Assembly (NCBI GenBank): GCA_964016885.1
Contig: OZ024740.1
Span: forward strand, 392,336,001-392,400,000
Length of the DNA stretch: 64,000 nt
Reading direction: 5' to 3'
DNA from: Eledone cirrhosa
Taxonomy: Eukaryota
The translations under genes were made by a program, and so were the position numbers. The notes below the pieces were generated by a model. That model ran no database searches. It was not told the DNA's origin and saw only the letters and a list, made by a program, of their open reading frames with translations. Of this stretch, positions 44,781 through 54,111 are shown piece by piece (position 1 is the first letter of the stretch; each line of letters begins with the position of its first letter).

Positions 44781-45907
44781 CAATTTGCTCACCATACGGA
44801 GAGATGGGGAGGGCCAGAGAGATGGAGGCGATGACAGTGGGAGTTCGACTGACTGATTCTTGTAGCATTCATTTTCCGTTGCAACATTCGTGATCTACCT
44901 TATATAACCTACAGGTTTATCTACAGGGCCATTTTCGCCACATTCGCCCACCTTTCAGCGAATTTACTGGAGTGTAGCACCTCCACCCTTATCTTCCTTC
45001 TGAAGTGGTATTAATAGCTAAAATAGATAGCTGTCCAGGAAGAAACACAACGGACGATGGAAGAAGAAAAAAACACAAAGAAAGAAAGAAAAAAACGACA
45101 TACCGATATGGAACGGGAAAAATACGAAGACGGCAGCACACATATGTGTGGTTAGTAACCATAGGAAAGGTTAATAAAAGTGGTTGGACATAAGTTCTGA
45201 AATTGTATTAACAAGACGGGAAGAAAAAGTCGACTGGTCAGTTAGACGGCCAGATCGTATAATGAGGAAACAAAGGTTGAACGGAAGTTGAGTAGGTAGG
45301 ATGAACAAGAACGGATGGAAAGGAGGAGTAAGAGAACTGAGAGAGAGGGAAGAATAATGGTATATAGTAAGAGAGAAAGAGAATCAGAAAGAAGAAAAAG
45401 AGAGGTCACAGCAGTAAAATAATGTAGAATTAAAAATGAGGTTGTGTGGTTACAAATAAATATTATTAAAAAAACCCCCCAAAACACGAGAGTGAAAACA
45501 CGGAATATATATATATATATATATATATATATATATATAGTTATACTTGGGGAGGGTCATATTTGTGTAATATTGCCAGAATTAATAGCAGAACACACTC
45601 ACTGTTTGGTTGGTTTTCGCTTTTCGCTTCTGTGTCTTTTATATCGGTAATCTAATTTATTCGGTCCTCAATGTTGCCATTGACTGACCAGCGGTCAAAA
45701 ATAATACAGATACAATATAGACACAAACACATATATATAGTTTATCAAAGTTCTTTCGTTGCACATCTGCAACATCGTCAGTGGTGCTATTGTTTCCTCC
45801 CGTTACATTGTATTTTCTATGCCATCTATATTTAGTCTGTTTATATATTTATTTATTTGTTTATTTTATTTTGTCTTCTTTGCGCATGCGTTTGCGTGTG
45901 TGTATAG

Positions 45908-46218
45908 TGCAGAAACATGACAACATACATAGGCGAGACAGCTCGTAGCATAGGTGAAAGGATAGACCAAAACTGGGGGGGGGGGGACTAAAAGGACGAA
46001 AAAACGGGTCAGTACTATACGAACATGCCAGACAACAACACGGCGGTAACATAGACAACATAGAAATTAGAATAATATCTAAACATAGAAATGACCCAGC
46101 AGATAGGCAAATCAGAGAGGCCAGTGAAATAGAACTTAGAAGGCCAAGGCTAAACAGAAAGAATGAATGGAATAACAACAACACCCAAACAAACAACACT
46201 GACCTAAGAGAAGTATAA
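45908..46218 (+). pseudogene. GIY-YIG endonuclease C-terminal remnant
   Basis: TYIGETARSIGERI (G12-run frameshift) SVLYEHARQQHGG...RQIREASEIELRRPRLNRKNEW; absent from the ORF track. Confidence 0.85.
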
Positions 46219-46474
46219 ATAAATAAATAGATAAATAAATAAATAAATACATACACAAGCACAATAACAACAAACACATATAAACACACACTAGTAAAGA
46301 TAGAATACATTAACCAATACACAGTCACCCAATCACGAACACACATCAAACAAAACACTATACACACACGCAAACGCATGCGCAAAGAAGACAAAATAAA
46401 ATAAACAAATAAATAAATATATAAACAGATTAAATAAAGATGGCGTAGAAAATACAATGTAACGGGAGGAAACA

Positions 46475-46528
46475 ATAGTACCACTGACGATGTTGCAGAT
46501 GTGCAACGAAAGAACTTTGATAAACTAT
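46475..46528 (+). ncRNA. Hammerhead-like motif (mirror copy 45737-45790, minus)
   Basis: CTGACGA-T-GTTGCA gatg TGCAAC-GAAA-GAACTT; stem II perfect, stem I weak. Confidence 0.55.
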
Positions 46529-46839
46529 ATATATGTGTTTGTGTCAATATTGTATCTGTATTATTTTTGACCGCTGGTCAGTCAATGGCAACATTGAGGA
46601 CTGAATAAATTAGATTACCGATATAAAAGACACAGAAGCGAAAAGCGAAAACCAACCAAACAGTGAGTGTGTTCTGTTATTAATTCTGGCAATATTACAC
46701 AAATATGACCCTCCCCAAGTATAACAATATTTGTTTCGACACACAATTTCATCTAAAAAACCTCGCAAAACTATATATATATATATATATATATATATAT
46801 ATATATATATATATATATATATATATATATATATATATA

Positions 46840-47049
46840 CAGGGGCGGTAGAAGCATTTCTGAATTGGAGATGTCAAATTTGTTCAATTTAGTAGCACTC
46901 TAAAATGGTCAGAAAACTTCGATATGCGATAAACATAACATATACATAAATTGTAACGCATATACAAATAAATGTGAGTTTTGGCAGTTTGGGGGAGGAA
47001 AATATAATTAAGGGCGGGGGCATGCCCCTACCCAGTTCTACTGCCCCTG
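46840..47049. mobile_element. MITE inserted in (TA)n
   Basis: TIRs CAGGGGCGGTAGAA / TTCTACTGCCCCTG. Confidence 0.75.
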
Positions 47050-47151
47050 ATATATATATATATATATATATATATATATATATATATATATATATATATA
47101 GAATAAGGAAAAGCGAAGTAGTTTCAGATGTTCAAGTCCTTTAATAATAAT

Positions 47152-47225
47152 GCTGTGATATATATTTCAATGGCGACACTGGCCACACTGTTCTGTGTGC
47201 GAGTGTCGTGACATCATCAGACAGC
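47152..47225 (-). ncRNA. Type-I hammerhead ribozyme, mirror copy
   Basis: Reverse complement of 48803-48876 with one substitution in stem II. Confidence 0.8.
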
Positions 47226-48802
47226 TTGTTACATAATAAGGTTATGTTTCCGAGGCAATCCAAATTGAATCGACATGGGAACGGATGAAATGCGTGCTTT
47301 TGGGTTTCTCACCCGTTCCCCTGTGAGTACCAATTCACCCCCACCGGTCTGCGCGTGCGCATGTCCGAAGGAAGTTGACCATTAGCTACCGCGGATTTCA
47401 ACGAAATTCGCTTAGTCAGTTCACCTCTCAGTCACACAATGGCCCGTACCATAGTTTACTGCTACCCATCTCGACTGTGGTAGTCAGTCGAAAGCCAGAG
47501 GGGATGGAGAGTGTTAGTTTTTACAGGTCATAATACTACCTCTCACCTAGCGTGGACAGTACGACTGACCATCAACTCAAAGGGAAAATAAACTTAATTC
47601 TAGGTATCATGGTTTTACATTGTAAGTTAAGAGTGAGAGTTTGAAATAAAAATTAAAGTCCTAAATCAAGTATCAGAAATTATAAATGAAACAATTAAAA
47701 AATTAACAATTAGAAATTAAAAGTTAGAAATTTTTTTCAAGTGAGAATTCGGATTGAGGTGAGTAAAAAAAATTATAGATTGAAGTGAGTAAATAATATG
47801 GAGAGAGCTGTTTAAGTAAGAAGTTTTGAGAGGGGTTCTAGTGTCACAGTTACTATATCGACATATTGAACGACAGTGCCGTACATTAGAACGGAGGGTA
47901 AGCTACAGCATTCAAGGCATTAGTCAATCTGGTACACAGTCATAATTTCCATCACATGGAACAATACCAAAGAAAAACATACATAGAAGAAAAAATGCAA
48001 AAACACAGAGTACATATATGCAAAATGATCCATATGATTGTCAATCTGTCCATGTATAGATTGAATTGAGGGGGCTTCTGTTCAAATGCGATTTGGTGCA
48101 GGGAAATAGGGGTTTATCTTATTTTTTGTTTCCGTGTATTTATCCTGCCGAAAGTTACTATTATGTCCGTCCAGTTTCAGGGGTTTCCATCCCCATGGTA
48201 GAGGGAATTTCCGGGGCAGCTCATGGTTGGTTCCTCTCTTCTCCACCATATCGGTTACATCATAGAGCGCTCAACTAACTGGAGCTAAATTATTAGGGTA
48301 AATATTGATGCAATTCAATTCAAGCACTCAACGTACTTTTTCCACATAGGAGTGACGGAGTAAATATCGAATAAGGAAAAGCGAAGTAGTTATAAAGTAC
48401 TTACAATGTAAAACCATGATACCTAGAATTAAGTTTATTTTCCCTTTGAGTTGATGGTCAGTCGTACTGTCCACGCTAGGTGAGAGGTAGTATTATGACC
48501 TGTAAAAACTAACACTCTCCCACCCCCTCTGGCTTTCGACTGACTACCACAGTCGAGATGGGTAGCAGTAAACTATGGTACGGGCCATTGTGTGACTGAG
48601 AGGGTGAACTGACTAAGCGAATTTCGTTGAAATCTGCGGTAGCTAATGGTCAACTTCCTTCGGACATGCGCACGCGCAGACCGGTGGGGGTGAATTGGTA
48701 CTCACAGGGGAACGGGTGAGAAACCCAAAAGCACGCATTTCATCCGTTCCCATGTCGATTCAATTTGGATTGCCTCGGAAACATAACCTTATTATGTAAC
48801 AA

Positions 48803-52512: not shown

Positions 52513-52595
52513 TCTCTACCACCGGTGGTTTCGTTCTGCTTTTTGGATATACCCAGTCTTGGATAAATCCACGAGGCTTGGAACTCATCAGGAGA
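52513..52595 (-). ncRNA. Type-I hammerhead ribozyme, intact core
   Basis: TCTC-CTGATGA-GTTC...GAAC-GAAA-CCACCGGTG-GTA^GAGA; stem III is the perfect palindrome ACCACCGGTGGT. Confidence 0.78.
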
Positions 52596-52876
52596 TACCC
52601 CAGACTGGACTAAGTTTCTTCTACCATGATCCTCACCAGAAATGAATTCAAAATGGCTAAGAACTATCACGTGGCTAGCGGTCAAGGCAGAAAGTTTGTG
52701 ATTGGTGCCTGTCGGCGAGTACGCTGGTTGCTAGAAAGCGCAGCCGAATACTGCCTACAAATTTACTCAACCTTACGGGAGTATATATTAAATTCAAAGG
52801 TATATATATATACACTTAGATATAGTCACAGACACATCCACATCTACGTGGATTTATATTTAGTAGGTTTGGAAAA

Positions 52877-52956
52877 GCTATCTGAAGCGCTATATCTTTC
52901 CATTGGAAATTCTCTGAATTTCCATTCATTTGATTAGCGAAACCGTCGGTCATGGC
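52877..52956 (+). ncRNA. Type-I hammerhead variant (A9 to C)
   Basis: GCTAT-CTGAAGC-GCTA...TAGC-GAAA-CCGTCG-GTC^ATGGC. Confidence 0.62.
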
Positions 52957-53097
52957 ACTAGAAGAGGTAAATATTTAAATCGTATTTTAATTTATTTAAA
53001 AGATTGTTTAATGTTTACTTGTTCCGCTCATATATGTATATATATAAAATAAAATAAAATAAATAAGTCAAATGTTTAAAATTTGGCTTCGTTTATT

Positions 53098-53152
53098 ACT
53101 GCTATATATATTTCGGTGACAGCCATCTTTGGCTGTGACCTCTTCAGGCAGT
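53098..53152 (-). ncRNA. Type-I hammerhead ribozyme, mirror copy
   Basis: Exact reverse complement of 53385-53439. Confidence 0.85.
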
Positions 53153-53384
53153 CCGAATTATTGTGGTAGAGACGAGTACACATGTTGTTGAGGTGTTTAA
53201 CTTTGTCAATACTCTGATATGCCCAGTTCCTGGTTGGATTGTTATTTCACTGAGGAACTGGAATCATATATGATTCCAGTTCCTCAGTGAAATAACAATC
53301 AAACCAGGAACTGGGCATATCAGAGTATTGACAAAGTTAAACACCTCAACAACATGTGTACTCGTCTCTACCACAATAATTCGG

Positions 53385-53439
53385 ACTGCCTGAAGAGGTC
53401 ACAGCCAAAGATGGCTGTCACCGAAATATATATAGCAGT
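53385..53439 (+). ncRNA. Type-I hammerhead ribozyme, intact core
   Basis: ACTGC-CTGAAGA-GGT.ACAGCCA aaga TGGCTGT.ACC-GAAA-TATAT-ATA^GCAGT; predicted cleavage after 53434. Confidence 0.85.
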
Positions 53440-54111
53440 AATAAACGAAGCCAAATTTTAAACATTTGACTTATTTATTTTATTTTATTTTACATTACTC
53501 CGTAGTAACCAAACCAACCTGCGCACTTCGTTGAGTGCTCCAATCTGCATACTAAGGTGTTGGTATACAACCAATATATACTCAATATATATATATATAT
53601 ATATTTCTATATAGTCTCCCGGAGTTTTTAACTGTTGGTCAATCAATGATAAACATTGATTGCCAGCTAAATTAACTATAGGGATATAAAATAAACGGAA
53701 GCAAAAACCAACCCAAACCAAACAGTGAGTGTGTTTTATTATATATTTCTGGCAATATTATAACAACATGACCCTCCCCAAATATAACAATATTTGTTTC
53801 AACACACGATTTCATATCAAAAACCTTGCAAAACAAATATATATGTACTAGCTGAATAATAATAATTCAACTATAACAATTATATAAAAATATAACAATT
53901 ATGTAAAATATATTTATTTAATATTGATTGTTTTTTGTAGTAATTTATATTAAAAGTCTGAAAATATTTTTATACATCTTACAATAATATTTATAAGATC
54001 ATTTATAAAATAACAATTATATAATCTAATTACATTACAACGATAAGTTATTATTAATATATATCATGTTTAACTAGAGTTATTAGAAGCGTTGCCTTAA
54101 AAAAATATTAA

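Follow-up and report, generated by a model that had tools for sequence, protein, structure and literature searches.

Truncated Penelope-like elements piled up in a TA array of Eledone cirrhosa, and a twin hairpin that may set both of their 3′ ends

Introduction

How does a short stretch of an animal genome come to hold hammerhead ribozyme motifs, long inverted repeats and endonuclease remnants side by side among simple TA repeats? The question is raised by an island at 45540-53835 of a 64,000-nt stretch of Eledone cirrhosa DNA (assembly GCA_964016885.1, contig OZ024740.1, positions 392,336,001 to 392,400,000, forward strand), here called the window and numbered from its first nucleotide. A first-pass annotation, made from the letters of the window, regarded the island as a dense group of unrelated, (TA)n-targeted Penelope-like elements (PLEs) whose read-through RNA would cleave itself. 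The analysis reported here shows that the island is a pile-up of about eight truncated PLE copies, ordinary PLE debris in a preferred target. Hydra-clade PLEs with hammerheads in (TA)n, among them the Octopus family Hydra-1_Obim, and inverted truncated copies have already been published (PMC8557442). Judged by its sequence the island appears to be real and known PLE biology, and what seems to be new is a twin hairpin whose position predicts both element ends.

Results

A TA array interrupted by successive insertions

The window is AT-rich animal DNA, rich in long and short interspersed elements (LINEs and SINEs), and 6 of its 12 TA tracts of at least 30 nt lie inside the island. A single TA array, 45505-50594, is interrupted successively by unit A, a 210-nt miniature inverted-repeat transposable element (MITE), unit B and unit I; distally lie a mariner-like remnant with a SINE and the older stubs F, C, D and G, palindrome E and stub H. 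The MITE, the mariner-like remnant with its SINE and unassigned sequence account for about 1.4 kb of the island, and the description as an island of PLEs is to be amended to some eight PLE copies with two DNA transposons and a SINE mixed in. The features are listed below (pLTR, pseudo long terminal repeat; EN, endonuclease).

45540..45909, minus: unit A, inverted tail-less pLTR arm; hammerhead core 45781 with a stem I mismatch
45911..46218, plus: unit A, C-terminal GIY-YIG remnant (YIGETARS ... RQIREASEI ... LNRKNEW); frameshift in a G run; Nematis-like by eye
46356..46771, plus: unit A, 3′ pLTR; hammerhead core 46484, 46-nt tail, then (TA)34
46840..47049, unstranded: MITE, 210 nt, not PLE; 14-bp terminal inverted repeats, TA on both sides, same TA array
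47101..48391, minus: unit B, minus piece; last 23 nt of pLTR, tail, hairpins, non-coding interior, pLTR with hammerhead core 47220
48361-48323 and 48285-48266, minus: hairpins 1 and 2 of the unit B minus piece
48399..49003, plus: unit B, plus arm; 5′-truncated pLTR, hammerhead core 48808 (predicted cut after 48871), hairpin 1 at 48935-48973, 76-nt tail, then (TA)39
49082..50275, minus: unit I, Hydra-clade copy; 3′ region, pLTR with U4>C hammerhead (core 49243), tail-less end
50296-49997, minus: unit I, GIY-YIG remnant, its first codons within the inverted arm
50276..50487, plus: unit I, inverted arm; 3′ half of hammerhead, degenerate hairpin 50393-50421, 93-nt tail, then (TA)n
50640..50936 (limits approximate), minus: unit F; decayed hammerhead, core 50736, GAAA reads GATA
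50937..51392, unstranded: transposon remnant, not PLE; 35-bp inverted ends, contains SINE 50995-51102
52141..52350, minus: unit C, relative of A; intact hammerhead core 52305, tail-less end away from (TA)n
52450..52800 (limits approximate), minus: unit D; hammerhead core 52591, 12-nt palindromic helix III
52813..53030 (limits approximate), plus: unit G; hammerhead with A9>C, core 52882
53047..53584, unstranded: unit E, perfect 222-bp palindrome; hammerheads 53147 (minus) and 53390 (plus); plus arm with hairpin 1 at 53497-53539 and 94-nt tail
53625..53834, plus: unit H; 80% copy of the unit A 3′ end with the same tail end, without hammerhead
58291..58408, minus: 118-nt stub outside the island; Hydra-type hairpin 58362-58336 (ACUC/GAGU form), (TA)n tract on each side, without hammerhead

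We take the remnant 50937..51392 to be Tc1/mariner-like, and the SINE is presumed to resemble octopus SINEs, a likeness that a literature search did not confirm.

Inverted pairs with one tailed and one tail-less arm

All four long inverted-repeat structures reported in the first-pass annotation were confirmed, with arms of 370 nt (7 mismatches) in A, 527 nt (3) in B, 114 nt (7) in I and 222 nt (1) in E. Both 3′ ends point outward in 4/4 pairs, the plus arm carrying a tail (46 nt in A, 76 in B, 93 in I and 94 in E) and the minus arm ending without one, and unit B holds a direct 23-nt pLTR overlap. The arrangement is that of inverted pLTRs after 5′ truncation, as had been proposed, in every pair. 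The mixture of tailed and tail-less arms is suggestive only, because an independent and equal choice gives 4/4 in 1 of 16 cases. None of the tails of A, B, I and E gave a significant folding z-score; only the short H tail reached -2.5.

For 8/8 outer ends of the pairs, a (TA)n tract of at least 8 nt is no more than 1 nt away, the background being 0.9% of window positions at most 5 nt from such a tract; the tail-less ends are set by the partner arm and the tailed ends partly by the (TA)n tract itself. Targeting of (TA)n is supported by both ends of the A, B, I and E pairs. These four are the best preserved of the copies; unit C ends 661 nt from the nearest tract.

Two endonucleases and at least two lineages

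The identity of the units as PLEs is supported, and the two GIY-YIG remnants are indeed different. The endonuclease piece left in unit I is 99 aa long and has 2011 relatives at E<=1e-3; identity to the best matches is 41-44%, these agree with the Hydra rows of Fig. S2 in PMC8557442, and CCHH is absent. The Hydra clade is defined by RWR/RWK, DKT, CxCx5-6C and CxxC/CxH features (PMC8557442), all of which are present in full-length relatives of the unit I EN. For the features CxCX5C linker, C-terminal CxxC/CxH, RWK and DKT, the counts in relatives were 85/150, 96/150 and 82/150, and 29-38/38 in fetched loci, where DK[TS], CxCx4-6C, CxLCxxE and CxH occur in 37-38 of 38 long open reading frames (ORFs). 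In unit I itself these features are truncated or lost. A word-based protein search and a search of viral contigs were empty for the unit I EN. The string YIGESKQ at about 49280 (plus) was rejected, being antisense to unit I and without a Pfam match.

The frameshifted EN of unit A was linked to GIY-YIG in the atlas at 0.91 (family on 15% of members), carries the YIG motif and has nematode clusters as its atlas neighbours. Three sequence searches, including word-based protein searches and viral contigs, gave no relative, and the likeness is by eye only, to the Nematis rows of Fig. S2 in PMC8557442, with which it shares an HxxxxHG-like stretch and the R-x-x-x-E..LN spacing. Pfam had no match for either EN nor for eight relatives, and the cluster look-up gave no informative names.

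The units had been called sequence-unrelated, which they are not. A, C and H form one lineage (A/C hammerheads 49/57 identical, A/H 172/205), and a Hydra tail hairpin is common to B, E and probably I. The sequences point to at least two lineages, the Hydra clade and, likely, Nematis; units B and E, which have no ORF remnant, would belong to the Hydra clade on the strength of their tail hairpin.

A hairpin, often twin, next to element ends

The hairpin was followed in 80 of 495 confirmed Hydra-like loci, all from metagenomes. A sense hammerhead lies downstream of the EN in 48/80 loci, and within 1 kb in 35/49 of those with 300 nt of room; (TA)n occurs within 260 nt in 10/29 Hydra loci vs 42/769 background windows. 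At 28-59 nt past the predicted cut site stands a bulged hairpin, GCUC-inner stem-UN-GAGC-ACU, which follows within 200 nt after 31/41 hammerheads and is present twice in 13 (47 of the 48 hammerheads were examined, one being dropped for a poor match, and 6 were too short). The pattern occurs 87 times in sense vs 12 in antisense, and 1-9 times in shuffles. The first inner pair, which is outside the search pattern, is paired in 34/34 with 14 double changes, in 34 hand-picked of 77 instances.

A second hairpin is found 34-56 nt on in 22 of 61 first hairpins (one locus, L018, counted twice), and an ATG follows 12-39 nt after the second hairpin in 19/21. Where the first hairpin stands alone, TA begins 29-49 nt after it in 8 cases (33 had 60 nt of room). 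Nineteen loci have both the leader and a 3′ copy; 12 of these copies end at the contig edge, and the other 7/7 stop -4 to +3 nt from the hairpin start. Of two further loci, L048 has an end that fits the hairpin start, so 8/9 informative loci agree. The published consensus of Hydra-1_Ajap likewise begins 2 nt before hairpin 1 (PMC8557442).

In the window, B, E and I have the hairpin in an ACUC/GAGU form, 62-65 nt past the predicted cut. The element ends lie 7 nt before each hairpin in B; before hairpin 1 the distance is 6 nt in E and about 2 nt in I. A hairpin model found the second hairpin of B with E 0.0003 and the stub 58291-58408 with E 0.011. DNA BLAST of the island vs the 80 Hydra loci gave no matches, and Rfam returned nothing for the hairpin. 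A search of literature listings, which did not cover subscription papers and Repbase reports, found no prior description of the hairpin, nor of a role for it in setting the reverse transcriptase (RT) starts, and the words hairpin and stem-loop have 0 occurrences in the text and supplement of PMC8557442.

Some further matches were seen. The one at 51854-51884 (plus) has no upstream hammerhead, stands beside a repeat also found at 62820-62930 and may be chance, as possibly is another at 42986. In locus L001, at 394-502, (TA)n lies between hairpins 1 and 2, 3 nt before hairpin 2 and ahead of an intact-looking ORF. In L024, L038, L061 and L069 the two contig ends share 55 nt, the pattern expected when full Hydra elements assemble from tandem arrays or circles.

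Unit B belongs to a multi-copy family

Unit B has a period of 1268 nt, contains 1.02 monomers with one same-strand hammerhead, and shows no ORF similarity. Four runs were mapped to 47091-48398, giving 3280 contig records in run X1, the source of which may be the same as that of the window, and 3035 reads in run X8, of various identity classes. Family B is multi-copy with a 5′-truncation gradient, summed depth, which is not copy number, dropping from some 160,000 at the end with the pLTR to 3,000-14,000 in the interior and rising about tenfold over the tail vs the sequence beyond. The joint between pLTR and tail is covered by 124 reads with 16 starts, and organism C has it on one contig. In related copies the core and the 5′ side are preserved, but stem II is different. 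Of the variants, 40 of 266 rows and part of the loose ends were covered.

The two B arms share 12/13 listed variants, for which X8 reads show the other letter in 43-94%; because these are common to both arms, the arms have a single source element or underwent later homogenisation. The minus piece begins 33 nt after the upstream predicted cut site, which is compatible with, and no proof of, a ribozyme-cut 5′ end. Hundreds of reads start or stop at 47332-47408 and 47266 and carry heterogeneous loose ends rich in AT, which suggests that a 77-nt module is shared and that many short copies have a fixed 5′ limit. A retrozyme has at least two tandem units in succession, each holding a complete hammerhead; B has not.

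The hammerheads are real motifs and probably inert in place

A strict type-I descriptor found 6 hammerheads within 45540-53835, with cores at 47220 (minus), 48808 (plus), 52305 (minus), 52591 (minus), 53147 (minus) and 53390 (plus), and 0 in the remaining 55,724 nt of the window, against a mean of 0.017 over 300 dinucleotide shuffles, 295 of which had none. A scored relaxed scan gave 5 inside the island, 0 outside and 0.125 per shuffle (40 shuffles), and added 46484 (plus) and 49243 (minus). The total is 11 hammerhead-type motifs from 8 units, 6 strict and 5 with defects; ten had been counted from about seven units, and while the dense motif set is real, the count is thereby corrected. The defects are one stem I mismatch each in 46484 (plus) and its mirror 45781 (minus), A9>C in 52882 (plus), U4>C and a long stem II in 49243 (minus), and, by eye, GAAA to GATA in 50736 (minus). 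The CTGAGGA..GAAA matches 53250 (plus) and 53287 (minus) were discarded as palindrome-centre artefacts. That the U4>C of unit I is a natural variant was ruled out by its occurrence in 0/48 hammerheads downstream of Hydra ENs under a pattern that permitted it.

The hammerheads lie in pLTRs and are sense relative to the EN in units A and I; the assignment as minimal type-I pLTR hammerheads is supported. Core and stems I/II are intact in 6/11 copies, helix III being exactly palindromic in B, D and E and near-palindromic in C. A and C differ by two compensatory changes in stem II. A variant at 47173, the majority in X1 and at 43% in X8, restores a stem II pair of unit B (among 40 of 266 variant rows). 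Scanning with Rfam did not reproduce the descriptor result: no hammerhead was found in the window at gathering score, nor among 48 matches to E 10. With a model built from 26/48 distinct Hydra-relative hammerheads, E and B ranked top with weak, partial local alignments (E 0.013-0.017), unit D had E 1.1 and the other units were missed. Covariation counts among the relatives' hammerheads are biased by the descriptor used to select them.

Single-strand folding recovered the hammerhead shape for E and C, and for the other units partly or not at all. When the inverted pairs were folded whole, the ribozyme nucleotides paired outside the motif were 43-55 of 44-55 in A and E, 73/74 in B and 85/105 in I, with no pairing inside. 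Transcription of each pair reaches the antisense arm ahead of the sense hammerhead, and none of the units carries two copies on one strand. Minimal hammerheads need a dimer, and monomers did not cut (PMC4209133). As read-through RNA the ribozymes of the island are likely inert, because the antisense arm would be made first, predicted folding sequesters them, a same-strand partner is missing and monomers are uncut. The self-cleaved ends predicted for read-through transcripts are therefore unlikely here.

Other features of the window

The motif GCGCA.GCG at 45882, 46375, 47352 and 48668 occurs only in the A and B pLTRs, about 100-140 nt upstream of the hammerhead; we take it to be NRF1-like, and it may possibly be an internal promoter element. 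Two copies of a restriction-like endonuclease end, with 83% DNA identity and no Pfam match, lie at 44421-44834 and 56675-57189 and presumably belong to a CRE/R2-type non-LTR element. Decayed LINEs with an RT by Pfam stand at 11768-14860 and 35686-39048, which we assume to be RTE-like and L1/Tx1-like, respectively, and 15110-16820 is taken for a hAT-like transposase remnant. A proteasome subunit exon (Pfam PF00227) stands at 18271-18500 (plus), and a host gene may harbour or adjoin the island.

Discussion

What made the island, and in particular its inverted pairs? We consider it probable that the cluster arose from 5′-truncated PLE copies of at least two lineages inserted repeatedly into (TA)n, the inverted pairs being formed by RT primed on both target strands, with starts set by two hairpins just 3′ of them. 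On even terms we hold the more specific idea that the twin hairpin is a ruler in Hydra PLEs, each copy docking one protomer of an RT-endonuclease dimer so that RT starts 0-7 nt 5′, from which inverted tailed/tail-less pairs and trans-mobilised non-coding RNAs would follow. One PLE protein has been shown to cut both strands of AT-rich DNA, to extend each of them and to begin copying at two sites within the RNA that bracket the tail (PMC11167929). Such a protein would bind hairpin 1 or hairpin 2 and begin copying 0-7 nt 5′ of it, and the two start sites so set would define what is called the PLE tail. Priming on both strands from one source would give head-to-head arms, one tailed and one tail-less, as the two complementary DNAs (cDNAs) grow inward from a nick each and become linked where their 5′ ends are truncated. 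Because the arms overlap, the template would be two RNAs, a tandem or a circle. Unit B would derive from Hydra, be non-autonomous and be mobilised in trans. The hammerheads would act on the source RNA, as dimers or aided by protein, and be passengers at the island; protein assistance, and dispensability for insertion, are reported for the hammerhead in PMC11167929.

Several results weigh against this account. In the one PLE examined in vitro, start sites are alike between strands and lie in a stem-loop of AC-rich sequence (PMC11167929). The units A, C and H show the same tail asymmetry without having this hairpin. RNAalifold recovers only the invariant outer 4 bp of the hairpin, the plain pattern also matches shuffled windows 0-6 times, and the hairpin model is weak for unit E (3.8) and misses the first hairpins of B and I, which are of the ACUC/GAGU variant. 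The 3′ copy of locus L008 stops 9 nt past the hairpin, and the start of Hydra-1_Obim has GCTC twice with no GAGCACT partner in the part available (PMC8557442). There is also no RT remnant in the window, where 41 queries matched only 50272-50000; the missing RT fits the 5′ truncation, as would be expected, and RT is present in relatives.

The same pile-up could have acquired its inverted pairs by fold-back, the nascent cDNA priming itself, or by later inverted duplication, with the hairpin serving as a DNA-level promoter or endonuclease site. The perfect palindrome of unit E, which has no spacer, speaks for fold-back, as does the sharing of private variants between arms, which any single-template route gives. 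Fold-back would, however, mirror one end, yet 4/4 pairs differ by their tail with each end family-typical, and the minus piece of B is longer than the plus arm and reaches beyond it. A site in DNA is favoured by the position of the hairpins just before ATG and by the D. virilis tail, which the EN required to recognise DNA (work cited in PMC11167929), whereas covariation across the 2-nt bulge fits a single-stranded fold. On balance we regard this alternative as unlikely.

Much less probable still is the functional view of the first-pass annotation, in which the island is a transcribed source of self-cleaved ends, circles and long double-stranded RNA for ADAR or small-RNA pathways. Six motifs are intact, arms of 222-527 bp at 98-99.5% identity would be predicted to form long duplexes, and the proteasome-subunit exon at 18.3 kb makes a host intron possible. 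Read-through is, however, predicted to trap every paired hammerhead in duplex, a same-strand dimer partner is lacking where minimal hammerheads are uncut as monomers (PMC4209133), for the element PAc no RNA-seq ends were observed at the cut site (PMC11167929), and five decayed motifs fit no selection here. That the inverted repeats are artefacts of assembly or fold-back reads and the motifs chance is hardly credible. The zero spacer of E would fit, as would the want of a contig spanning 47091-48398, but the arms show mismatches and part at definite positions into flanks that differ, shuffles yield far fewer motifs, A and C differ by two compensatory stem II changes, and family B is present in independent reads.

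The Hydra clade (Craig et al. 2021, PMC8557442) resembles the window in EN type (unit I), the sense pLTR hammerhead and (TA)n insertion, and for Penelope-13_HM a 5′-truncated inverted copy was noted as here; the Hydra-1_Obim hammerheads differ from those of the window, the tails are 76-94 nt here vs 30-40 in the Hydra clade, and unit B has no coding sequence. The published Hydra consensus sequences contain the twin hairpin, though text and supplement do not mention it (PMC8557442). Metazoan PLE minimal type-I hammerheads (Cervera and de la Pena 2014, PMC4209133) have, as here, a stem I of 4-5 bp and a long stem II, an extra base after A9 (A and C in the window) and a palindromic helix III (exact in B, D, E and I), and dual motifs on opposite strands 100-700 bp apart were noted there in 2014; the window differs in stem II insertions of up to 77 nt, the 12-nt palindrome of D and five mutated copies. 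PAc (Poseidon; Frangieh et al. 2024, PMC11167929) shares two fixed 3′ ends bracketing the tail, AT-rich targets and extension of both strands, and the window differs in that two homologous hairpins stand in a non-coding leader, with one of them immediately 3′ of each end. Non-LTR retrozymes, which a 2026 preprint (Li et al., 10.64898/2026.07.22.740005) argues to be PLE derivatives, resemble unit B as non-coding PLE derivatives with a type-I hammerhead and a head-to-tail period, but unit B has one hammerhead per strand, not two consecutive units. For O. vulgaris a repeat annotation lists 31 active Penelope-like families, with no mention of ribozymes in the available part (PMC13282606).

The choice of two internal start sites and the tail and inverted structures are named as an open question in both PMC8557442 and PMC11167929, and it is on this question that the twin hairpin bears. 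The hairpin spans marine invertebrate-type contigs and the host, and it would help to mark out non-autonomous Hydra derivatives, which escape Rfam and Pfam.

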